Position numbers and translations under genes: made by a program | Assembly: GCA_965232545.1 (NCBI GenBank) | Contig: OZ246979.1 | Location: 4,623,521 to 4,687,520, forward strand | Source of the DNA: Candidatus Poribacteria bacterium | GTDB lineage: Bacteria; Poribacteria; WGA-4E; WGA-3G | Length of the DNA: 64,000 nucleotides | Direction of reading: 5' to 3' | Notes under the pieces: model-generated | Told to the model about the DNA's origin: nothing | Databases searched by the model: none | The model's input: only the letters and a program-made list of their open reading frames with translations | In this document: positions 1,122 through 63,160 of the stretch, one piece after another | Layout of the letters: each line of letters opens with the position of its first letter | Numbering within the stretch: position 1 is the first letter of the stretch

Positions 1122-1203
1122 CGGTCAGCAGTCGGTTCCTGTCAGGAAAGAGGTTTCTTGCTGGTAGCCGAAAGGGTTGCGTAGCAACCCGTGCTGATGG
1201 CTG

Positions 1204-5284: not shown

Positions 5285-5395
5285 GAGTTGTCAATTATCA
5301 GTTGTCAGTTAACATTACACCAAAATCGTAGCCTGCAACAACGGCGCAGGCGGATATGAGGAAGGCACGTTAACGTTCAAACGCATGTCATTCCT

Positions 5396-5415
5396 CCGCA
5401 AGGAATAATTAAAAT
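5396..5415 (+). promoter_or_regulatory. Upstream module copy (CCGCAAGGAATAATTAAAAT) abutting ATG of UPF0182 gene
   Basis: TATAAT-like -10 element 6-8 nt before ATG. An extended conserved block lies upstream (GGCGGATATGAGGAAGGCACGTTAACG…). Confidence 0.5.
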
Positions 5416-9240: not shown

Positions 9241-9280
9241 GGTAAGGTAAAATTAAAAATCCGCAAGGAAAGTCTAAAAA
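9241..9280 (+). promoter_or_regulatory. Tandem double copy of the upstream module before pheA
   Basis: GGTAAGGTAAAATTAAAAAT-CCGCAAGGAAAGTCTAAAAA-TTG. Confidence 0.5.
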
Positions 9281-10348: not shown

Positions 10349-10550
10349 TTTTTTAATGATACATGGCAGATAAGTAATGACATTTGTAACTTGATGGTTT
10401 TCGTGTTCGAGCTGAAAAAATGCCCAAGCAAAAACCCTGCGCCGTTGTTGCAGGCTGCTGCTTTGGGTGAAAAATTAAAGATAAAACGTGAGCGTAGCGG
10501 AGGACGGATATACGGGGAGGCACTTGAAAATTCAAACCTACCTCACCAAT

Positions 10551-10590
10551 CCGTAAGGAAAAATTAAAAATCCGCAAGGTGCAATTAAAA
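10551..10590 (+). promoter_or_regulatory. Tandem double copy of the upstream module, with the queG GTG start embedded
   Basis: CCGTAAGGAAAAATTAAAAAT-CCGCAAG-GTG-CAATTAAAAA. Confidence 0.45.
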
Positions 10591-11735
10591 AGCGAATTCA
10601 TAAGCGGGCAAACGAACTTGGATTTGAACTCGTCGGAATCACACCCGCCACGCAGAGTGAAACGATTGAACGGTATCGGCGGTGGATAGAAAGCGGGTAC
10701 GCTGGGGAGATGAACTATCTTGAAAAGCATCTTTCCCTTAAGACAGATGTCCGTCGACTTCTATCAGAGGCGAAATCTGTTATCAGTCTCGCGATGAATT
10801 ATTATACGCTTGATCCACCGAAGGCACTCACACAGGATCCGGGACGTGGACAAATCTCCCGCTACGCGTGGGGTGATGATTATCACGAACTTATTCGTGA
10901 ACGCCTTTTGGAACTCGTCACTTTTATCAAGCAGACCGCTGAAAGCGAATTGAAAACCCGTGTATGTGTAGATACCGCGCCTATTATTGAAAGGGAGTAC
11001 GCACAGAGAGCAGGTATCGGATGGATCGGTAAAAATACGAACTTGATTCATTGGCGTTCCGGTTCTTGGTATTTTCTCGCGGAGGTACTCGTCAGTGTCG
11101 CGTTGGAATCCGACACACCGGACCTTCGTGGGAGTTGTGGCACTTGCACACGTTGTATTGAAGCGTGTCCGACAGACGCAATTATTGAACCGAATCTGCT
11201 TGACTCCCGGCTTTGTATTTCTTATCTGACAATCGAGTTAAAGGAGAGCATACCGAAGGCACTTCGTCCCAAGATCGGTAACTTAATTTTTGGCTGCGAC
11301 ATCTGTCAAGAGGTCTGTCCGTGGAATAGTAAAGCCGTCCCAACGATCGAACCCGCGTTTCAGCCGCGCGATGGGAACCTCGCACCTGAGTTGCTTTCGC
11401 TTGTTGGTATGACGCAGCAAGAGTTTAGTCAGCAATTCAAGGGAAGTCCAGTCAAACGCGCGAAACGTCGAGGATTTTTGCGGAATGTGCTCGTTGCGAT
11501 CGGTAATTGGCGGGCGCGGCGTGCTGTTCCGGCACTCGAAGGTACATTAGCCGACCACGAACCTTTAGTTCGCGGACATGCCGCTTGGGCATTGGGAAGG
11601 ATCGGAGGTGAAACCGCCAAGCGAATATTGCAAACGCGACTCACCGTTGAAACGGATCAGGATGTTATCATTGAAATCCAAGACGCGCTCTTAGAAACAG
11701 AGCAATTATCAAGGAAAGAGGCAAAAAATGCGTGA
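10578..11735 (+). CDS. queG: Epoxyqueuosine reductase
   Basis: In-frame extension upstream of ATG 10710 restores the QueG N-terminus (LGFELVGITPA). The GTG start is embedded in module copy CCGCAAG-GTG-CAATTAAAAA. 4Fe-4S Cys clusters (CGTCTRCIEACP, CDICQEVCPWN). C-terminal HEAT-like repeats. Confidence 0.8.
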   Translation, partial: GAIKKRIHKRANELGFELVGITPATQSETIERYRRWIESGYAGEMNYLEKHLSLKTDVRRLLSEAKSVISLAMNYYTLDPPKALTQDPGRGQISRYAWGDDYHELIRERLLELVTFIKQTAESELKTRVCVDTAPIIEREYAQRAGIGWIGKNTNLIHWRSGSWYFLAEVLVSVALESDTPDLRGSCGTCTRCIEACPTDAIIEPNLLDSRLCISYLTIELKESIPKALRPKIGNLIFGCDICQEVCPWNSKAVPTIEPAFQPRDGNLAPELLSLVGMTQQEFSQQFKGSPVKRAKRRGFLRNVLVAIGNWRARRAVPALEGTLADHEPLVRGHAAWALGRIGGETAKRILQTRLTVETDQDVIIEIQDALLETEQLSRKEAKNA

Positions 11736-17925: not shown

Positions 17926-17960
17926 CTTTTAATTATTCCTTGTGGTTCGGTCAGCTGGGT
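17926..17960 (-). promoter_or_regulatory. Upstream module copy before PhyH paralog A
   Basis: rc reads GCTGACCGAACCACAAGGAATAATTAAAAG-ATG. Confidence 0.5.
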
Positions 17961-18168
17961 TTCGGACTTAACGTTCCTTTCCGTATATCCGCTCTCCATT
18001 TCATTACGAGCTATGCGTTTTCTTTAGTAGGCGGGGGAAACGCCTTATCAAAAACACTCCGATTCCCGACTTTTCGGATAAGTCGGACAAAGCCGTAAAA
18101 CTGAATAGTTGGCTCCATCCTGATAGAAAGTTGATAGACATTTAAAAATATGCTATCATGAGTGAAAA

Positions 18169-19347
18169 ATGATGTCTACAAATAAACAGATTTTATTTTT
18201 AAATATTGGGTTTTCGCGCTGCCTTTCTATCTTAATTTTTGCCCTATCGGTGGTGTGTCTTGCACCAGCAGAAGATGGCGAACCGGACGAGGCTGCACAG
18301 GCATATCAGGCAGGCTTACAAGCACTCACGCAAGCAAAGCATCATGATGCATTTGCGGCGTTTCAGCGGGCAGTAAAATTGGACCCAACCCACGCTGAAG
18401 CGCACTATCAACTCGGTGTGATTTACGGCAAACAATCGCAATGGAAACCAGCCATTGATGCACTTCAGACTGCGATTAGTCTCTCACCCGATTTTGCTGA
18501 TGCACACGTTCGCCTTGGCGAGGCATACCTGATCGGCATGGCGAGTGCTAAAGATGCGGCTAAACCCTTGGAACGTGCACTACAGTTGCAGCCCGACCAC
18601 TTACGCGCACGAAGGCTTTTAGGCGATGCATACCTCCGACAGAACCGATACGACGATGCGATTCAGCACCTTAAACAGTTGATACAGGACAGTGAAGCCC
18701 GTTACCTCCTCGGTCTTGCTTACTTCCAAAAAGAGGATTTCACGCAGGCGATACCACACTTTGAGGCAGTTATTAAACGCGCAAGTCGACATGCCAAAGC
18801 GCATTTCAATCTTGGGAATTGTTATCTCCGTACAGGGAAAGTCGCCGAAGGGCGCGCTGCGTTCCGCATGTTTGAGAAACTCACGCGCGAAGAGGAGCAA
18901 TTGGCATCACTGCAGCGTTTGATTCATAACGATCCGCAACGCCTGCAACCGCGTTATGAGCTTGCAGAACTATTTATAAAAAGAACCGAATGGGAACTGG
19001 CTACGGCGGAACTCAAAGTGTGTCTCGGCATCGCACCGCACGATGAGAAGGCATCTGAACTGCTCGGTTACATCTACCTGCAAACAGAGGCTTATCCAGA
19101 GGCACTTGAAGTCTATGGCGGTCTCGTTGAAGCACACCCAGAGAGCGCCATATACCGGAATAGTCTCGGCATTATCTATATGATGCAAAAGAAACCTCGG
19201 CAGGCGATCCCTCAGTTTGAAACGGCGACACGTCTTAACACAACCAACCCACAACTTTACCGAAACTTAGCGAATGCCTATCGGCAGGTCGGCGAACAGG
19301 CGAAAGCGGAGCAGGCGTATCGGCGTTACCGCTCCTTAACAAAATAG
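18169..19347 (+). CDS. TPR-repeat protein with signal peptide
   Basis: Sigma70-like TTGATA-N17-TATCAT ends 9 nt upstream. Signal peptide plus at least 8 TPR motifs (AHYQLGVIY, AHVRLGEAY…). Confidence 0.65.
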   Translation: MMSTNKQILFLNIGFSRCLSILIFALSVVCLAPAEDGEPDEAAQAYQAGLQALTQAKHHDAFAAFQRAVKLDPTHAEAHYQLGVIYGKQSQWKPAIDALQTAISLSPDFADAHVRLGEAYLIGMASAKDAAKPLERALQLQPDHLRARRLLGDAYLRQNRYDDAIQHLKQLIQDSEARYLLGLAYFQKEDFTQAIPHFEAVIKRASRHAKAHFNLGNCYLRTGKVAEGRAAFRMFEKLTREEEQLASLQRLIHNDPQRLQPRYELAELFIKRTEWELATAELKVCLGIAPHDEKASELLGYIYLQTEAYPEALEVYGGLVEAHPESAIYRNSLGIIYMMQKKPRQAIPQFETATRLNTTNPQLYRNLANAYRQVGEQAKAEQAYRRYRSLTK

Positions 19348-19408
19348 GAGTCAGCCGACAGCTATTCTTCTGACTGCCGACAACCGATGGCTGACAGCTA
19401 TTCCGCTA
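19348..19408. repeat. 7-bp-repeat element between the TPR and GMC genes
   Basis: GAGTCAG-CCGACAG-CTATTC … CTGACTG-CCGACAA-CCGATGG-CTGACAG-CTATTCC. Confidence 0.5.
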
Positions 19409-23310: not shown

Positions 23311-24750
23311 TTTGTCCGAAATGCGATATGATTCAGGTATCATGTTGGCAGACATGCTAAGCATTGTCGCTTGACAATGTGTCTGCCACCTACTTAGCAG
23401 GGGTTAAAAGCATGATACATGAAAGTCCATGAAAACAGAAACATACGAGTTCTACCATCAATCTAACTTGATACAGATCGGCAATTTGATTGACGATTTG
23501 CATGGTGTGCATGTTCACCTTTTGATGTTGCAGAGACGCTATTATCGTATCTATGGGAAATATGCGTCCTTTGCCCGCATCTGCAATCATATCACGAAGT
23601 TAAAACAGCGGACGAAACCGCATTGGAATCAACTGCCGAGTCAGGTCCTCCAACAAGTCGCAAAGCGTATTCACTTGGGATACGAAAAGTTCTTTGACAA
23701 CCTTAAGGATCGCAAAGCCGGTAAAACAAAACGTAAAATCGGTAGACCGAAAATCAAGCCGAATCATAAATATAACTCACTGACGTTCACACAAGCAGGT
23801 TTCAAATTAGAAGGCAATCGGTTGAAAATCAACTGTCTCGGTAAATCCTTCACATTTTGGAAACACCGCGAGTGGACGGGGCGTATCAAAACCGTCACAA
23901 TCAAGCGTGACCCCGTAGGCGACTACTATCTCTACATCACGTGTGAGGACTGTGAACCTTCCGAGAAACTCTCTTTGACCGGTAATGTGGCAGGGGCGGA
24001 CTTCGGAATGAAAACATTTCTCACACTTTCAGACGGGACGAAAATAGATTCGCCAGAATTCTATAAACAAGGTCTCAACGCAATCCGTTCAGCAAACAAG
24101 GCACTCTCCCGCAAGCAAAAGGGTTCAACTGCATGGTATCGTGCAAAGTGGCATTTCGCCCGTGTTCATAAGGAAATCGCCAATAAGAGACGCGATTGGT
24201 TCTTCAAATTGGCCCTTCGGCTTGTGCGAAAGTATGATACGATTGCGATAGAGACCTTGAACCTTGAGGGGATGAAACGCCTCTGGGGACGCAAGGTCTC
24301 TGATATTGCCTTCGGTGAGTTTGCTCTCATCCTGCAATGGACGTGTGCGAAATATGGTAAAACTTTCTTGAAAGCGGGACGTTGGGAAGCCACGACAAAA
24401 CCGTGTCGGACTTGTGGACATCACAATGAAAATCTAACACTCCAAGATAGGCAGTGGATATGCCCTGACTGTGGTTCACACCATGATAGGGACGTAAATG
24501 CTGCTATCAACATTTTGCAGGCTGGGGTACCCGCGTAACAATGCGCGATAAAGCCGTTGGATCACAACTTCGTGAGTGTGGCGGAGACGGAATAATAGCC
24601 TGCGGGTGGAGCGACAGTCAGACGGTGGACTCTCTGAGAAAACCGCAGTTGCTATGAAACCGAAGCCTACGCCTTTAGGCGTTGGGTAGTATCACAAAGC
24701 GAGTATATGGGGCATTCACCGCACGACTGATGGAGGTGAATCATGGCATA
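23310..24750 (+). mobile_element. IS200/IS605-family element carrying tnpB only (IS1341-like); boundaries approximate
   Basis: Left-end region has promoter-like TTGACA…TATGAT and hairpin GGCAGACA…TGTCTGCC (23362-23401). Structured sequence for ~200 nt after the tnpB stop, consistent with a right end / omega-RNA scaffold. No tnpA seen. Confidence 0.55.
23429..24538 (+). CDS. tnpB: TnpB (IS605 OrfB) RNA-guided endonuclease-type transposon protein
   Basis: RuvC-I (GADFGMKTF), RuvC-II (IAIETLNLEGM), RuvC-III (HHDRDVNAAINI) and a CxxC…CxxC zinc finger (CRTCGHHN…CPDCGSHH) are all intact. Confidence 0.8.
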   Translation: MKTETYEFYHQSNLIQIGNLIDDLHGVHVHLLMLQRRYYRIYGKYASFARICNHITKLKQRTKPHWNQLPSQVLQQVAKRIHLGYEKFFDNLKDRKAGKTKRKIGRPKIKPNHKYNSLTFTQAGFKLEGNRLKINCLGKSFTFWKHREWTGRIKTVTIKRDPVGDYYLYITCEDCEPSEKLSLTGNVAGADFGMKTFLTLSDGTKIDSPEFYKQGLNAIRSANKALSRKQKGSTAWYRAKWHFARVHKEIANKRRDWFFKLALRLVRKYDTIAIETLNLEGMKRLWGRKVSDIAFGEFALILQWTCAKYGKTFLKAGRWEATTKPCRTCGHHNENLTLQDRQWICPDCGSHHDRDVNAAINILQAGVPA

Positions 24751-31703: not shown

Positions 31704-31735
31704 TTTTTAATTCTTCCTTGCGGTTCGGTCACGGT
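31704..31735 (-). promoter_or_regulatory. Upstream module copy before PhyH paralog B
   Basis: rc reads CGTGACCGAACCGCAAGGAAGAATTAAAAA-ATG. Confidence 0.5.
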
Positions 31736-32004
31736 AGATTGGATAAATAACATGCTTTTCCGTATATCCGCCTGCCCCGTTGTTGCAGGCTATCTTCTTC
31801 CTTTTGAAATCCCGTAGACGGGTATCTGTGTAGAATCGTTATGAATAGGAATGTCTGAATATGGTATCATAAATTAAAACGACTGTCTACTGATACCTTT
31901 CTTCCCTTCTTCTGTAGTCTCTGTAGGAGGGATCTCCGAATCCCGACGCTTTCTGATAACGAACCACTGATTACTAACAGCCACTTTCAAGGATACACAA
32001 AAAC

Positions 32005-35703: not shown

Positions 35704-36036
35704 TCGGGTTTTGTTCGCGTTTATTTGTTTGTTGCAAAATTAATGCTAACATTAATGTGCAAAAGCGTCAAGGAAAAAAAATTAAATCCATTCAGCAATC
35801 TGAAAGTGGGTTTTTAATTTTTTGTGCTTGTGTCGTTGTGTCCGTTATCCTTGCGGATTTTCCGTTAAGACAGTCGGGCGGGGCCCCGTCGCTACGGGGT
35901 TGGAAGTTTTGGTGGAAAAAGATAAATCCAAGCGCGTAGCCCGCAAGCGGAACGGAGGGGTTTTTGATAGGGGTTTTTGATACGGTGTTTCCCTTTCTTC
36001 AGATATACGGAGAGGCACTTTCAGATCCCAACTCAC

Positions 36037-36066
36037 CTGACCGAACCGCAAGGTAAAATTAAAAAA
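36037..36066 (+). promoter_or_regulatory. Upstream module copy ~35 nt before the ZIP transporter gene
   Basis: CTGACCGAACCGCAAGGTAAAATTAAAAAA, followed by TATACT and ATG 36102. Confidence 0.45.
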
Positions 36067-36101: not shown

Positions 36102-36851
36102 ATGCTTACATTCTATCTGGCAATTGCGGTGACGACGGTTCCACTCGGAGCGGGAATCGCTTTTGTTTCGCGGGGACGGCAAAAACATTTCGGACACATT
36201 TTTGGATTGACGGCGGGCGCAGTACTCGGCATCGTCTTAATTATGATGATGCACCTTTACACCGAGGTAGGTTACATCACAATCCTTGTGATGTGGGGTG
36301 GGTTTTTCCTAATTTCAGCAGTAGAACATCTCACGACACATCGACGCGGCGACACGGAGAGGGACACAAACAGGGCAGACAAGAGATGGGGCATCAACTT
36401 AACCGTTCTCGGACTATCGTTGCATTCACTGGCAGACGGACTTAATTTGGTTATCGCCGCGAGAGAGGAGATACTTGGTGGAGCACTTGCATTTGGCATA
36501 CTGGTCCATCGTCTACCAGTCGGGACACTTATCGCCGTCGCGCTCCTCCGAAATCATACCTTTGGTAAGGCACTGCTTCGACTGACACCGCTGATACTTG
36601 GACCGGTTATCGGAGCAGCACTCGGGGAACAGCTCCTCCGTGGGGCGTTCGGTGAATTGGCAGACTATCTGACAGCATTCGCTGTTGGTACGCTTTTACA
36701 TGTTGTGATGGACGGGTTTCGAGGCAACTATACTGTCGAGAAGATAGGAAACCTGAGCCGTTTTGAAAAAGTGCTTTTTGTCATCGGATTCGTCTTGACC
36801 TTTTGCGTTATCTATTTCTTTCAGGGATTTGAGGGTGAACATCTTCACTAA
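36102..36851 (+). CDS. ZIP (ZupT-like) family metal transporter
   Basis: 8 predicted TM helices. HSLADGLN motif in the family's conserved metal-binding helix. His-rich loop (HRRGDTERDTNRADKR). Confidence 0.6.
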   Translation: MLTFYLAIAVTTVPLGAGIAFVSRGRQKHFGHIFGLTAGAVLGIVLIMMMHLYTEVGYITILVMWGGFFLISAVEHLTTHRRGDTERDTNRADKRWGINLTVLGLSLHSLADGLNLVIAAREEILGGALAFGILVHRLPVGTLIAVALLRNHTFGKALLRLTPLILGPVIGAALGEQLLRGAFGELADYLTAFAVGTLLHVVMDGFRGNYTVEKIGNLSRFEKVLFVIGFVLTFCVIYFFQGFEGEHLH

Positions 36852-36987
36852 GAATAGCCGTTGGCAATCAGGTCGTTTTTTTTCTTCCGAAAAAAAACTT
36901 TCAGTGGTCAGTAAATCATTACGTCAGTTGCAAACGATTTTCACCGCTACACGATCCTCTTTGCTGACTGCTGACTGCCGACCGCTG

Positions 36988-42194: not shown

Positions 42195-42210
42195 TCTAAA
42201 CAACGCACCT

Positions 42211-42237
42211 GACCCAACCGCAAGGAAAGTTAAAAAT
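42211..42237 (+). promoter_or_regulatory. Upstream module copy before PhyH paralog D
   Basis: GACCCAACCGCAAGGAAAGTTAAAAAT-ATG. Confidence 0.5.
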
Positions 42238-43092: not shown

Positions 43093-43232
43093 TATTTTAT
43101 AGTTATCAGTTTTAGGAGTTGTCAATTATCAATTATCAGTTTTAGGAGTTGTCAATTATCAGTTAAAGAGGACCCTGGTTAAACGAAAACCTCTTAACCG
43201 GCAACTGACGACCGACAACCGATAACCATAAA
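43093..43232. repeat. Largest composite palindromic 7-bp-repeat element
   Basis: (AGTTATC AGTTTTAGG AGTTGTC AATTATC) x2, then AAGAGG…CCTCTT hairpin, then CAACTGA-CGACCGA-CAACCGA-TAACC in the opposite orientation. Confidence 0.55.
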
Positions 43233-43235
43233 AAA

Positions 43236-47725: not shown

Positions 47726-47843
47726 TAGGTGTCGGTCGTCGGTTGCCAGCAGTCAGTAGCGAGATTTGCGTTAGATCCAAACCCATAGCCTGCAACAACG
47801 GCGCAGGCGGATCTACGGAAATAAACGTCAAGGTGCTAAGCCC

Positions 47844-47873
47844 CCTGACCGAACCGCAAGGTATAATTAAAAA
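47844..47873 (+). promoter_or_regulatory. Upstream module copy before the FN3/T9SS gene
   Basis: CCTGACCGAACCGCAAGGTATAATTAAAAA-ATG. Confidence 0.5.
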
Positions 47874-50500: not shown

Positions 50501-50608
50501 TAGCCGTCAGCGGTCGGCTTGCAGCCATCAGTGACCCTTGTGATAGGTGAAAACGTTCGCAGTACCTACGACGGTTACTGACAACTGACAGCCGATAGCC
50601 GATAGCCA
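50501..50608. repeat. Composite palindromic 7-bp-repeat element
   Basis: CCGTCAG-CGGTCGG…CCATCAG … spacer … ACTGACA-ACTGACA-GCCGATA-GCCGATA. Confidence 0.5.
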
Positions 50609-51799: not shown

Positions 51800-51852
51800 C
51801 CAATAGTTATCAGTTATTGGAGGAACACACGTCAAACTCGAAACGTCCGGTG

Positions 51853-51876
51853 TTCCTCCGCAAGGTATAATTAAAA
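51853..51876 (+). promoter_or_regulatory. Upstream module copy before thrB
   Basis: TTCCTCCGCAAGGTATAATTAAAA-ATG, preceded by inverted repeat GGAGGAACAC…GTGTTCCTCC. Confidence 0.5.
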
Positions 51877-52816: not shown

Positions 52817-52917
52817 TTTAATAGTTGTCAGTTTTCAGTCGTCGGTTAAGAGGTTTCGTTTAACAATACCCTCTTGTAACCGATAGCCGATAACCGACAA
52901 CCGATAACCAGTAAAAA
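52817..52917. repeat. Composite palindromic 7-bp-repeat element with the same architecture as 43093-43232
   Basis: TAGTTGTCAGTTTTCAGTCGTCGGTT - AAGAGG…CCTCTT - GTAACCGATAGCCGATAACCGACAACCGATAACC, abutting the ATPase-homolog ATG. Confidence 0.55.
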
Positions 52918-52918
52918 C

Positions 52919-55878: not shown

Positions 55879-57933
55879 CTACACCCAAAACCCGTAGGTC
55901 GGGATACCCGCGATAATCCCTAAGATTGTCCAGAGACTCCCCACTGTAAATTCTCCCAAGATTAACCCTAAGAAAAAGGGGGCTATCTTGCGGTGCCGAA
56001 TGACGCCGCCGTACTGAAGAATAAGCCATTTGATTAACCAACTCATGAAGAGGCAACTCCACGTAACGTTCATACCCCAGCTTGTAGAGATAGCGAACCC
56101 TGCGGGGTGAAATGGCCACCAAACGAATCGCATCCGAAAGAACATCAGCACTGTTGTCAGCAGAAACCCAATGCCCATGAATCCACTTTCAGGGATAAGT
56201 GTCTCTTCTGGGGCTTGCAACCATCCCGCAAGGCGACGATACGGCTCTATCCCAAAAGCACTCAAGGAGGGCCAGTACGCACGCACCTCCATGCCTAATC
56301 GATAACCTCGGTCTATTAATGCCCAAAATCCTGCTAATGATCCCAAAATAGTTGCCAGTGTTAAGGCGAAAATGATACGATTCATCTTCATGTTGGTCCG
56401 TTCCATGATCTTGAAACCTTCTAACTGATGCGGCATCGGGTGACTCCGATGTGCCCGATTAATGAACCAAAACATAGAGAACATAATGAGGTTGCTTCTC
56501 CCCAATCGACGTGTTCCAACAGTCCGAGTCAGAATTTCATCAGGACCGGAATAGTGCAGATCATGCACAGGTGTCCCCAGTTCGGCGCGCATCCGGGTTA
56601 TGGCGATCGAAATCATATAATAGATAACGAAAAATGCGAACATCACCCAAAGTTCAGCACCGCCATAGTAGCAGAAAAGCACAAGGAATACCATTACCGC
56701 AATAAGACCGAGCGTCGCCCCGCGATAGGACATCGGTTCCTGCCGGGTGTCCCCCGAAACCCTATCCTGTAGGAGGGGTTTGTAACCCCGATTCCTCAAT
56801 CCAAAAACGGTTTTCGCTACATCCAATAGATGTTTGCGACTTGCCCAGATAGCTAAAACGCACAGCGCAAGGTAACCACCTGATGCTTGCTCGTTCATGT
56901 AAGGAAAACGGGGTAGACTCCGTAGTCCAAGGGCGGCACCGAGAACCCGCATAAACCGCCAATACCAAAAGAAAAACCAGCATGAGAACGAAAGGTCAAG
57001 CGGGATGAAGAAACCGAGCCCGATTGCAAACGGGTAGAGTGAAAATGGGATCCGCCCCATAGCGTTCCAAGGGCTCTCTGTAAAGATTTGGAAACTTCGC
57101 ACGCGTGTCCGTAGTTCAGGTAAAATCGGATACAGAAAGTTAACACCATTCCACAGTGCGAGCGCACCAGCAATCCCAAAACCGAGCCACATCAATTTAT
57201 TCTGGAATAGGCGATTCTGTGGTGTCTCTGTCAATTGAAGGGGGAGTTGAATTATCGGGTAGCTTAATTTCTCATGTTCGATCCATTGTTTACGAACAAT
57301 TATATTGATGCAAAGCATACCGAAAATCAACATAGTAATGAAGGCGGTCCACCAGAGTACGGGCGTTGCCCAGCCGAGCAGTGTTTCAACTGTGTAGAGA
57401 GGTAACTCACCCTCATAATAACCGTATAAGAGGGTTGTGTTGCTGACGGTGAGCCACTTTGGCAGGAAAGGAACAAATAACTGTTGCCATTCATTTTCCG
57501 GAGTCACAAAGCGGAAGGCATGCCCTAACATCGGCACCAGAATCTCGAGCATATCGTGCCCAGTAATTCCCGAAGCGATGGAAAGCATTAGGTAAACAAC
57601 GACTAACTCGCTTTGTGCTAATGCCAAACTGGGGACAAAACGGCGTAATAGGGAGTTTACGCCGATAATCATGAACAGGCTGAAGATCACATTGAAAAAG
57701 AGGGAAATGGTCACAGGATGACCTGAATACCGAATAACCTCCATCTCAATAACCCAGTAGCAGTTAATCGGTATGAGAATAACAGCAATCAGAATAGATT
57801 TGAGTGTGACACCGTGGGCAGGGATTCGTGATGATGTTAGCGAAGCGGAAGTTTCAAATTTTTTAATTATTCCTTGCGGTTCGTTGAGGCAGGTTTGATG
57901 AATGAAGCGCCTTTTCGTAGAACCGCCCTCCAC
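55879..57933 (-). CDS. Large polytopic membrane protein of unknown function
   Basis: 684-aa ORF with at least 14 hydrophobic helices. The upstream-module sequence lies inside the annotated N-terminus (NEPQGIIKKFETS), so the true start is probably further downstream and remains uncertain. Confidence 0.45.
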   Translation of the reverse strand: MEGGSTKRRFIHQTCLNEPQGIIKKFETSASLTSSRIPAHGVTLKSILIAVILIPINCYWVIEMEVIRYSGHPVTISLFFNVIFSLFMIIGVNSLLRRFVPSLALAQSELVVVYLMLSIASGITGHDMLEILVPMLGHAFRFVTPENEWQQLFVPFLPKWLTVSNTTLLYGYYEGELPLYTVETLLGWATPVLWWTAFITMLIFGMLCINIIVRKQWIEHEKLSYPIIQLPLQLTETPQNRLFQNKLMWLGFGIAGALALWNGVNFLYPILPELRTRVRSFQIFTESPWNAMGRIPFSLYPFAIGLGFFIPLDLSFSCWFFFWYWRFMRVLGAALGLRSLPRFPYMNEQASGGYLALCVLAIWASRKHLLDVAKTVFGLRNRGYKPLLQDRVSGDTRQEPMSYRGATLGLIAVMVFLVLFCYYGGAELWVMFAFFVIYYMISIAITRMRAELGTPVHDLHYSGPDEILTRTVGTRRLGRSNLIMFSMFWFINRAHRSHPMPHQLEGFKIMERTNMKMNRIIFALTLATILGSLAGFWALIDRGYRLGMEVRAYWPSLSAFGIEPYRRLAGWLQAPEETLIPESGFMGIGFLLTTVLMFFRMRFVWWPFHPAGFAISTSWGMNVTWSCLFMSWLIKWLILQYGGVIRHRKIAPFFLGLILGEFTVGSLWTILGIIAGIPTYGFWV
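56768..56799. repeat. REP-like hairpin repeat, GTAGGAG family
   Basis: TGTAGGAGGGGTTTGTAACCCCGATTCCTC. Confidence 0.55.
57860..57884 (-). promoter_or_regulatory. Upstream module copy inside/at the 5' end of the 684-aa membrane protein ORF
   Basis: rc reads CAACGAACCGCAAGGAATAATTAAAAAATTTG. No ATG follows directly. Confidence 0.4.
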
Positions 57934-58365
57934 TTCGTTACGGGCTGCGCGTCAGTGATTAAGAATTTGCACATAGATAGACTGCAAGTTTGATAGTAGA
58001 TGGATACGTATTATTTTGGCGATCGCTACAAACGCCCGACCGCTATCTGTGAATATTCCTCAATCAATTTATCACACTTTTTTCAACAAGTCAACTTTAA
58101 AATCTCTTATACTTCTTAAGCCATCAATCGTATCGGCATCGTACTGAATAGGGCCAGTGTCGATTTTTTTTCAAGAATCCTTTCGGTTATCAGGTACAAA
58201 GAGTGTTAGGCGTATCATATCCGTCTTTTAACTGACTGCTGATTGCTAACGACTGACGGCTAATTACTGACTTTTTTAAATAACGTTTCCATGTTATAAT
58301 GGATGTCGCAATATGGCATTGCAGGTTGTGCCTAAATTGCATCTGTAACAACTTAGGATACAAAT

Positions 58366-60970: not shown

Positions 60971-61022
60971 CCGTCAACAAAGAAGTCATTAGTAAAGAGG
61001 TGTATTCGTTAAAGATCACGCA

Positions 61023-61258
61023 GCTTGGAACGAAGTGGAGGACGGGTCTACGGAGAGGGACGTTAAATATTTTAACCCTACTGATCGAACCGCAAGGTAA
61101 AATTAAAAAACTGCTGAGATTGGGGTGTTGAAGTTTCTTTTATCTTGGAACCCTGAGACCCAAGCGCGTAGTCCGTAACGAAGTGGAGGACGGGTCTACG
61201 GAGAGGGACGTTAAATATTTTAACCCTACTGATCGAACCGCAAGGCAAAATTAAAAAT
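61023..61258 (+). repeat. Two direct copies (~78 bp each, ~80 bp apart) of the extended upstream module
   Basis: ACGAAGTGGAGGACGGGTCTACGGAGAGGGACGTTAAATATTTTAACCCTACTGATCGAACCGCAAGG(T/C)AAAATTAAAAA occurs at 61023-61100 and 61181-61258. Neither copy is followed by a credible gene; the second overlaps the stop of 61251-61931. Confidence 0.6.
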
Positions 61259-61931: not shown

Positions 61932-61952
61932 CTTTTAATTTTACCTTGCGGA
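61932..61952 (-). promoter_or_regulatory. Upstream module copy before the nucleotidyltransferase gene
   Basis: rc reads CTCCGCAAGGTAAAATTAAAAG-ATG. Confidence 0.5.
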
Positions 61953-62080
61953 GAAAGGACGTGCGTTAGAACTATCGGATGCGTTCCTTAGATCCGCCTG
62001 CGCCTGCTTCGCAGTGAGAATGCAGGCTACCGGTTTTGATGCTATCTCAAGAGAAGCCCTTTGTTAGCCGCCCCCCTCTT

Positions 62081-63006: not shown

Positions 63007-63127
63007 AAAGAAATATCTCCTTTTTAAGAGATCCAGTTCTGTGCCTGAAAGTTATAAAGAAAACGTAAGCCCAAACAACGTGCCGGGCTGACTCTACGCC
63101 GAGAAACGTCAAAGCCTCTATTCCACT

Positions 63128-63160
63128 TCATCGAACCGCAAGGAATAATTAAAAATAAAA
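63128..63160 (+). promoter_or_regulatory. Upstream module copy ~55 nt before the SD-led ADH gene
   Basis: ATCGAACCGCAAGGAATAATTAAAAATAAAAAAAG. Confidence 0.4.

Follow-up and report, generated by a model that had tools for sequence, protein, structure and literature searches.

A dispersed Poribacteria-specific repeat whose 3′ block keeps a fixed distance to the starts of unrelated genes and may act in translation initiation

Why do genes of unrelated function in one stretch of a Candidatus Poribacteria genome begin directly after what appears to be the same short sequence? In the window, by which we mean the whole 64,000-nt stretch that was analysed (contig OZ246979.1, positions 4,623,521 to 4,687,520), the initial annotation had described a conserved module abutting the start codons of at least 12 genes, with an embedded −10 box that would make their mRNAs leaderless. 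The repeat exists, and its frequency far exceeds chance: AAGGNANAATTAAAA with up to one mismatch matched the window 14 times, against 0.16 matches expected, and CGAACCGCAAGG with up to two mismatches matched 15 times, against 5.4 expected. In the 64 kb of the window there are 16 copies, which corresponds to about one gene start in five (Table 1). The AAGG of the copies lies at 5400, 9244/9265, 10555/10576, 36050, 42222, 47858, 51862, 61094, 61242 and 63140 on the plus strand and at 17941, 31719, 57875 and 61947 on the minus strand. Every position at which the motif had been placed carries a copy, and the genes 3′ of the copies are indeed unrelated, encoding UPF0182, chorismate mutase/prephenate dehydratase, QueG, three PhyH paralogs, an fn3/FlgD-Ig protein, a GHMP kinase, DUF6785 and an NTP transferase. 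The four recurrences reported for one block were not recovered: the 27-mer TAGCCTGCAACAACGGCGCAGGCGGAT was found three times within three mismatches, and the reverse-complement copy near 10432 is only a 12-nt fragment.

Table 1. Copies of the element in the 64-kb window, with one promoter-like site beside the first copy
Feature	Position	Strand	Details
Full module, UPF0182 gene	5326..5415	+	P1 5329-5355, middle region, 3′ block CCGCAAGGAATAATTAAAAT 5396-5415; ATG 5416
Sigma-70-like site TTGTCA-16-TAACAT	5288-5315		Just 5′ of P1 of the UPF0182 module
Two tandem 3′ blocks (GGTAAGG..., then CCGCAAGGAAAGTCTAAAAA)	9241..9280	+	Chorismate mutase/prephenate dehydratase TTG 9281
queG module, two tandem blocks	10488..10591	+	CCGTAAGG at 10551, CCGCAAGG at 10572
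Full module, PhyH gene	17926..18016	-	P1 stem GCUC/GAGC; ATG 17925
Full module, PhyH paralog	31704..31796	-	P1 31766-31792; ATG 31703
Module with GGGGTTTTTG... insert element in place of P1	35990..36065	+	36 nt 5′ of ATG 36102, not flush
Truncated module, PhyH gene	42195..42237	+	Block variant AAGGAAAGTTAAAAAT; ATG 42238
Full module, fn3/FlgD-Ig protein	47783..47873	+	P1 47786-47812; ATG 47874
Module without P1, GHMP kinase (thrB-like)	51812..51876	+	ATG 51877, offset 15
Full module, DUF6785 ORF reads through	57860..57951	-	No canonical start at junction
Two orphan modules between convergent genes	61016..61257	+	Blocks 61090-61109, 61238-61257; period 148 nt
Full module, enlarged P1, NTP-transferase gene	61932..62030	-	ATG 61931
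Full module	63064..63155	+	~60 nt 5′ of AAGGAG-led zinc-ADH-type gene, ATG 63217

The claim that at least 12 genes start directly after the motif held for eight copies only, in which the canonical start codon of a long ORF lies 15–16 nt after AAGG. At queG (10576) and the DUF6785 gene (57875) the ORFs read through the block, with no ATG, GTG or TTG at the junction. The copies at 36050 and 63140 stand away from the starts that follow them (the gene at 36102 encodes a ZIP-like protein), those at 61094 and 61242 have no gene downstream, and those at 9244 and 10555 are additional tandem 21-nt units. The truncated module at the third PhyH gene, 43 nt in length, runs from directly after the preceding stop codon (42194) right up to the ATG, and the NTP-transferase gene on the minus strand ends in a TAA (61251-61253) that the second orphan module provides. 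Ordinary genes led by AAGGAG Shine-Dalgarno (SD) sequences are present beside the module genes, as had been noted, and more than one initiation mode therefore exists in the genome. The sole transposase-like ORF in the window is an IS605 OrfB/TnpB (23429-24538); no tRNA genes were found in the window, and an exact-protein look-up for one window gene returned no record.

Scanning CCGCAAGGNANAATTAAAA across 185,579 species-representative genomes gave at least 110 matching stretches. Among the 80 matches listed, all except one chance match belong to Candidatus Poribacteria or to ‘uncultured bacterium’ MAGs, one of which is syntenic with the window. The module is lineage-specific, as proposed, since the matches listed are confined to Poribacteria apart from chance. 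The set of copies analysed below was drawn from the scan loci, eight orthologous metagenome loci and the window, about 1 Mb of Poribacteria DNA in total, and holds 196–215 copies, i.e. about 200; these copies share descent, so that the counts are not independent events. Extrapolation from this set suggests hundreds of copies or more per genome. The element had no match in Rfam, either at the gathering threshold or at E ≤ 1, and a search of the literature found nothing on leaderless genes, RNA motifs or repeats in Poribacteria. Use of the block by phages was also considered; the eight matches in viral contigs all lie in unrelated contexts and are due to chance.

The element is a mosaic of an invariant 3′ block, a semi-conserved stretch and an optional hairpin, P1. 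The consensus of the 3′ block is CCGCAAGG-W-A-W-AAT-TAAAA(A), and among 215 nhmmer matches the positions C-4, C-3, A0, A1, G2, G3, A+5 and T+9 were changed in 0–2 copies, in contrast to the free positions +4 (T in 121, A in 86) and +6 (A in 134, T in 76). The block may occur alone, and tandem repeats with a 21-nt period are frequent. On its 5′ side lie about 25 semi-conserved nucleotides (AAAC.CAC.T...), which fall into three subfamilies according to their ends (...ACCGAA; ...TTTCT or ...TTTAA; ...CTTAT). The middle region diverges (mean column identity of 50% in 14 copies), whereas P1 and the block are near-identical between copies.

P1 consists of RTAG, a stem of 4–6 bp that varies in sequence, and a loop that is conserved (UAAYGNARUGGA or AACAACGGC); in most module copies, (C/T)(G/A)TAG lies immediately 5′ of the stem. 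A P1-type loop was present within 100 nt upstream in 88 of 212 blocks. The stem was paired in 90% of cases, compared to 74% in shuffles and 42–53% in slid controls, and 40 double-change cells were counted against 8.4 ± 2.5, with compensatory changes in all four pairs. P1 also occurs without the rest of the element (19 of 63 instances), and it is sometimes split by GTTTTTGCTTGGGTGTTTC, an independent insert ~25 nt long, which was seen in both orientations.

A second helix, P2 (GCGG...CCGC enclosing CGG/CCG and AGG/CCU), was first read from hand-picked copies and failed every test: its complementarity showed no excess within copies over permuted copies (4.25 versus 4.11 ± 0.06), G-U pairs were as numerous as A-C mismatches, and pair probabilities were at most 0.1. 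Covariation is thus restricted to P1, which falls short of what identifies a structured cis-regulatory RNA. Three further candidates were set aside. Extending a CC-GCAA-GG mini-hairpin by position −5 versus +4 gave no consistent pairing by eye in five window copies. As an intrinsic terminator, P1 has too long a loop and an insufficient U-tract by the scan criteria. For a MITE, terminal inverted repeats are missing, and flanking direct repeats or a target-site duplication were looked for in three full copies and not seen.

The register between block and start codon was then evident across the copy set. In 91 of 199 unique copies (46%), the start codon of a long ORF lies 15–18 nt after AAGG, confirming that the module stands in fixed register with the starts of unrelated genes. 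The offset from AAGG to the start was 16 nt in 63 cases (~73%), 17 nt in 13, 15 nt in eight and 18 nt in two, and the start codon was ATG in 79 of 86 (92%). Copies that abut an ORF start are in the sense orientation without exception, and a co-directional ORF lies 5′ of most of them (49 of 56 or 75 of 85, depending on the count). The gaps to the upstream ORF range from ~300 nt down to 1–28 nt; in the tightest operon junctions only the 17–21-nt block is left, within the 3′ end of the upstream gene. In about 10 copies, a canonical AGGAG and a start codon directly follow the block. By inspection, copies are largely single and point to the downstream gene. In 31 copies the orientation is antisense to an ORF of ≥120 codons, whose 3′ end the copy adjoins, and in 23 of these the TAA stop of the ORF is the reverse complement of the block's TTA. 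The three antisense ORFs that were checked, which encode TrkH, a FemAB/GNAT protein and the window NTP transferase, are all real genes.

Orthologous sites carry the module in some species and lack it in others. For the NTP-transferase gene, the module is flush with the ATG in the window, L111/112 and L118, and the orthologs in L113–117, L011 and L006 (73–83% amino-acid identity) have the same ATG and no module, with unrelated upstream sequence that bears ordinary SD-like motifs. The DUF6785 gene of the window carries a module, and its ortholog in L011 has none and an ATG at the equivalent codon. These comparisons show that the block takes over the native upstream region up to the start codon, with the start codon unmoved, as at the NTP-transferase gene. 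The two orphan copies at 61016-61257 are missing at the orthologous site in L011, L006 and L113/114, and L111/112 has one copy. They stand in place of a 33–37-nt spacer that is found in L011 and L006, and they shorten the convergent gene by three codons (KHFPRF-stop to KHF-stop). The junction at this site falls within a shared A-run, and the comparison of filled and empty sites revealed only A-tract microhomology at the 3′ junction; from this one comparison, we infer that joins form at A-rich tracts beside ORF boundaries. Other copies have been kept: the copy at 63140 is present in three species (the window, L006 and L011), and orthologous copies are retained across species at ~80% nucleotide identity. 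Presence and absence at orthologs, together with the kept copies, indicate that gain and loss of the element keep pace with the divergence of species, while some copies are retained. The initial annotation had named as contrary evidence a dispersed mobile element unrelated to gene starts; the element is a dispersed repeat with gain and loss, yet it is linked to gene starts.

Such behaviour would also be expected of a selfish or neutral repeat with no role in expression, whose flush position merely reflects insertion at A-tracts beside ORF ends. Its presence and absence differ between species, both whole modules and 21-nt units are amplified in tandem, some copies directly adjoin the stop codons of antisense genes, and P1 is REP-like and is also found by itself. 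However, flush insertion deletes the native SD of genes such as trpB, proC, thrB and pheA, so that the block must supply a working replacement signal. The retention of orthologous copies and the uniformly sense orientation of the start-abutting copies, which make up 46% of the total, are likewise at odds with a neutral repeat, and we consider this explanation highly improbable.

The leaderless-promoter reading of the initial annotation takes W-A-W-A-A-T as a −10 box, with transcription beginning 7 nt 3′ of it, on the A of the start codon, and 70S ribosomes translating the leaderless mRNA. Its geometry stands. The hexamer at +4 to +9, which occupies −12 to −7 of the ATG, reads xAxxxT in 215 of 215 copies, with T at its first position in 56%, and the spacer to the start codon, predominantly ATG as noted above, is 5–7 nt. 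Moreover, A+5 and T+9 are invariant while hexamer positions 1 and 3–5 vary, which is a TANNNT signature. In Actinobacteria and Deinococcus-Thermus, a TANNNT-like hexamer about 12 nt 5′ of the start characterizes TA-led genes (Zheng et al. 2011, PMC3160421), and the hexamer of the block falls within the in-silico definition given there. The non-module genes show a TANNNT peak at −12, and some of them have canonical promoters of the leaderless type, several with a −35/−10 pair six nucleotides before the ATG (TTGAAA-17-TACAAT-6-ATG and TGgTATAAT-6-ATG; window 18131-18169, gene at 18169). In addition, strong upstream sense promoters are less frequent for module genes (11%) than for SD-led genes (20.5%), and the copies followed by AGGAG and a start codon are compatible with a promoter and a short leader.

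Several observations nevertheless disfavour transcription that starts at the start codon. The hexamer has neither a −35 partner nor a TGn extension, and a two-hexamer sigma-70 scan of six module-bearing window regions found no site at the block. The −35 position reads ACCCAC or ACGCAC, and AAGG places G at −14 but A at −15. A is found at −12 in 40% of copies, and such copies are enriched among those that abut a start; the start-abutting copies thus favour a longer SD match and a poorer −10 hexamer, the opposite of what the promoter model predicts. The invariant CCGCAAGG has no explanation in that model, and the 31 antisense copies would fire into the ORFs at whose 3′ ends they lie. Perfect promoters of the TTGACA-17-TATAAT type lie 90–200 nt 5′ of several flush copies, and one canonical upstream promoter, that of the DUF6785 gene (TTGACT-17-TAAATT, 58094-58066), is conserved as TTGAC(T/A)-17-TGnTAAATT in L011, which lacks the module at this gene. 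The signals of TA-led genes also differ in kind, being degenerate −10 boxes that evolved in place, whereas the Poribacteria block is a 20-nt invariant repeat, without T at −12 in 40% of copies and lying within mRNAs or ORFs in at least 26 cases. Promoter consensus sequences of the sigma-54, ECF, sigma-H and Bacteroidetes types, compared by eye, did not fit the block.

The strongest evidence against a leaderless start comes from the ORFs that read through the block. In the copy set, 26 long ORFs cross it with no start codon at offsets 14–19. The block therefore lies inside the mRNA of these fused genes, and probably inside the ORF, and this rules out transcription from offset 16 in these genes. 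Taken together, these observations make the leaderless-promoter cassette an unlikely explanation, though copies of the TAWAAT type may have a secondary promoter role.

In these fused genes, the family profiles of QueG, the DgcA racemase, MTOX/DAO, ProC and DUF6785 start at or inside the block. Position 1 of TIGR00276 (QueG) corresponds to residue 5 after the block's ATT (10584 in the window), DgcA profile position 2 to residue 2, and MTOX profile position 3 to residue 3; the ProC Rossmann strand runs from residue 5. Position 1 of the DUF6785 profile corresponds to residue 21, and the first canonical start to residue 42. Two classes can be told apart among the public ProC and QueG proteins, one with a native N-terminus (MVKDL..., MSTLTQQI...) and one with a module-coded N-terminus (...NEPQGIIKN..., MYQTHLTEPQGKIK...) of the form ...EPQG(K/I)IK.... 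Farther 5′ in the module, an ATG or GTG in frame is available in most fused copies. For the window queG, the TAA in CCGTAAGG closes the upstream frame 13 codons before the family N-terminus, and the ORF leaves the second block without a canonical start, so that AUU codons are the sole option (candidate ATT codons at 10584 and 10596).

These fusions bring in the possibility that the module is itself a coding cassette, equipped with a start codon, an SD-like GGAGAGG or GAAAGG and an open frame reading ...Q-T-H-L-T-E-P-Q-G-(K/I)-I-K-K, and that its product is a leader peptide or an N-terminal tag. The start codon in this case would be a mid-module ATG, or an ATG or GTG in the P1 loop. Frame 2 is open across the module in every fused copy examined, the in-frame ATG or GTG is available in most of them, and the fusion has been kept in large ProC and QueG clades, one such module-coded QueG bearing an NCBI product name. 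Three-base periodicity was examined as evidence of coding: changes at −2, +1 and +4 are synonymous in frame 2 and thus suggestive, but the highly variable +6 is a second codon position, where it causes a Lys/Ile switch, and contradicts it. Furthermore, the ATG of the gene is out of frame in the 46% of copies that are flush, the in-module ATG is missing from most copies, and the TAA closes the frame in the window queG. A coding function of the module is accordingly improbable.

We propose instead that the element is a portable translation-initiation cassette, dispersed, specific to Poribacteria and acting in 5′ UTRs and at operon junctions; judged from sequence comparison, we give this explanation about an even chance. 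AAGG, or AAGGA in most start-abutting copies, would pair with the 3′ CCUU(U) of the canonical anti-SD tail. Pairing would begin at −16, within the range in which AAGG occurs in the AAGGAG of the ordinary genes of the phylum, and the A/U tract that follows would leave the start codon unstructured. The 17–21-nt block alone would suffice, and persists by itself in tight operon junctions; the semi-conserved 25 nt and the REP-like P1 would be optional passengers, with a possible separate role. Imprecise joins would remove the native ATG, with the result that the gene is read through the block's open frame and presumably starts at a codon inside the module or at the block's own AUU.

The 3′ end of the 16S rRNA is canonical (GGATCACCTCCTTTCT), with the tail GGAUCACCUCCUUUCU in L096, and AAGG or AAGGA is complementary to the CCUU(U) of GGAUCACCUCCUUUCU, although the match of 4–5 nt is weak. 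At 680 non-module gene starts, AAGG peaks at −16 to −11 (21, 18, 21, 21, 16 and 14) and GGAG at −14 to −9, so that the AAGG of the module at −16 is within the range of AAGG in ordinary genes. Among copies with the exact pattern, an ATG lies at offset 15–17 in 42 of 68 AAGGA blocks, compared to 32 of 100 AAGGT blocks (chi-square ~14.6, calculated by hand). The loss of the native SD at flush insertions, described above, points in the same direction.

Certain features fit a translation-initiation cassette less well. The AAGG match lies at the far edge of the SD spacing range and is short, AAGGAG was never seen in the block, and an SD with an A/U spacer gives no reason for the near-invariant CC, A+5 and T+9. 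The copy at 63140 cannot be acting as a translation-initiation region, because it lies ~60 nt from an SD-led start and is conserved all the same. Some of these features would be expected if the block were the binding site of one sequence-specific factor, protein or RNA, that co-regulates hundreds of genes on the DNA or on the mRNA, its likeness to an SD or a −10 box being incidental. About 12 of its 20 positions are essentially invariant phylum-wide, beyond the needs of a generic SD or −10 box, tandem units at 21 nt correspond to two helical turns, and conservation at 63140 away from a start codon would be accounted for. Conversely, neither a candidate factor nor any palindromic or dyad symmetry emerged, the genes share no functional theme, and orphan and antisense copies are common. 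A factor-binding site has, in our estimate, a low probability.

The element might be a mobile ‘start cassette’ that carries a complete translation start and grafts onto the 5′ edge of any ORF via A-tract microhomology, a tentative idea that we regard as possible but doubtful. Such a start would comprise the SD-like AAGG, the unstructured spacer and, where the native ATG has been lost, an open frame of the cassette with an internal ATG or an AUU start.

Among known repeats, the REP/BIME elements of Enterobacteria and Pseudomonas, which are associated with REP-associated tyrosine transposases, have a GTAG beside an imperfect palindrome and lie mostly 3′ of genes, in inverted pairs. P1 resembles them in its GTAG (RTAG) directly 5′ of an imperfect palindrome with a co-varying stem, and the element shares their mosaic build, as also found in BOX repeats, and their tandem amplification. 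Unlike REP, it faces the gene 3′ of it, and the block in which it terminates, at the start codon, is not palindromic. Correia (CREE), BOX, RUP and ERIC-type MITEs are small, non-autonomous intergenic repeats that can supply promoter or processing signals and vary between strains, with no fixed phase relative to start codons; the Poribacteria element differs from such Correia-like MITEs in having neither terminal inverted repeats nor target-site duplication.

The start region itself recalls other systems. A purine element followed by an unstructured A-rich tract 5′ of the AUG, i.e. an SD with an A/U-rich spacer, is a statistical preference and not a copied sequence. Bacteroidia reportedly have A-rich ‘Kozak-like’ start contexts, which Baez and colleagues are said to have described in 2019. 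The native Poribacteria starts are similar in being often A-rich at −1 to −6, and differ from those of Bacteroidia in that the anti-SD is evidently in use.

The nearest published concept is that of putative mobile promoters (PMPs), similar sequences of 50–100 nt before non-homologous genes, some families of which span genera and which are interpreted as recyclable regulatory DNA (Matus-Garcia, Nijveen & van Passel 2012, PMC3488235). PMPs were defined by at least 50 nt at ≥80% identity before non-homologous CDSs whose neighbouring CDSs are also non-homologous, and were sought 50–150 nt 5′ of the start, the first 50 nt being ignored; the largest family has 93 members (PMC3488235). The Poribacteria family also precedes non-homologous genes. 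It stands apart in its start-codon register, its very high copy number (hundreds or more per genome by extrapolation, compared to the PMP maximum of 93) and its phylum-wide invariance: its invariant part is made up of the final 20 nt, whose distance to the start codon is fixed, and promoter activity is unsupported.

The motif is a clean marker for binning Poribacteria contigs. For annotation, the fusions mean that gene callers misplace or extend the starts of module-fused genes, and that some ProC and QueG proteins in databases have module-coded N-termini or are truncated. If the start cassette is real, hundreds of unrelated genes per genome (extrapolated from about one-fifth of those in the window) would share one ribosome-loading sequence, and clades of ProC, QueG, TrpB and other enzymes would have a cassette-coded N-terminus or a non-AUG start. 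A whole phylum would then have standardised the translation start of many of its genes by one copy-and-paste cassette, a natural counterpart of the standard ribosome-binding parts of synthetic biology, and repeats would have a new route by which to rewire expression, via translation instead of promoters.

For queG, an ORF that reads through the 3' block of the dispersed module, 38 conserved N-terminal residues are encoded 5' of the first ATG, GTG or TTG. A TAA closes the frame 13 codons farther upstream, and AUU codons are the sole start codons on offer. The N-terminus of this intact gene is therefore accounted for by one of three readings: widespread AUU initiation; a 10-codon uORF (TTG at 10521) followed by reinitiation; or a CAA-to-TAA change, either a very recent nonsense mutation or a sequencing change.

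Features located in the window and at the other Poribacteria-type loci (L-numbers)
Feature	Location	Strand	Remarks
queG	window 10584-11735		intact QueG; TIGR00276 match, 390 bits
Internal likeness within module	window 47824-47862
P1 insert	window 35955-36000; L001, L005, L010, L014, L016, L023, L025, L031 and others
Module copy	L073, oriented index 5248	-	A-run adjoins TGGAGCAGACGGGATTTGAACCCGT
IS605 OrfB/TnpB-type ORF	window 23429-24538		domains OrfB_IS605 and Cas12f1-like TNB
7-nt-unit repeat	window 1150-1200, 2005-2029, 5290-5312, 19365-19386, 36965-36987, 43212-43235, 50585-50608, 51810-51830, 52895-52918, 58200-58260
Non-module genes with start-proximal sigma-70 site	window 18131-18171; L022/L026, L060, L072, L102

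Within the module, AACGTCAAGGT in the middle region is similar to AACCGCAAGGT of the block, and the middle region also carries a second SD-like motif, GAAAGG or GGAGAGG. The module may derive from a ~28-nt unit that was duplicated internally.

The REP-like hairpin P1 contains, in 26 of the 212 modules, an insert of ~25 nt with the sequence GGGGTTTTTGCTTGGG(T/C)(G/A)TTTC, which either takes the place of the P1 3' arm or lies in reverse orientation within the P1 loop (GAAACACCCAAGCAAAAAC). The insert behaves as a mini-element nested in the module. P1-type hairpins were also observed standing alone at several loci, with no module 3' of them. These have longer, 6-bp stems (for example, ACCACCGCG-TAATGTAATGGA-GCGGTGCCC) and are flanked by ACC...(G/T)CC in place of GTAG; they may constitute a separate family that has the conserved loop in common with P1.

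For the L073 copy, the adjoining TGGAGCAGACGGGATTTGAACCCGT, read as its reverse complement, resembles a tRNA 3' end with CCA; this copy would then lie directly behind a candidate tRNA gene. The IS605 OrfB/TnpB-type ORF, relatives of which occur in L101 and L047, has no module sequence at its ends.

Another intergenic repeat family in the window, unrelated to the module, is built from 7-nt TTGTCAG-, TTATCAG- or CTGACAG-type units in tandem, as in gtcaattatcagttgtcagttaac and ctgacagccgatagccgatagcc, and is present in L006 and L011 as well. Members of this family are often found immediately 5' of the start codon of a gene lacking an SD sequence, and some units contain the -35-like TTGTCA.

In some non-module genes, canonical sigma-70 sites end 6-9 nt 5' of the ATG, as in TTGATA-17-TGcTATCAT-9-ATG and TTGAAA-17-TACAAT-6-ATG. 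Judged from these sequences, Poribacteria probably have true leaderless or near-leaderless genes, independent of the module.
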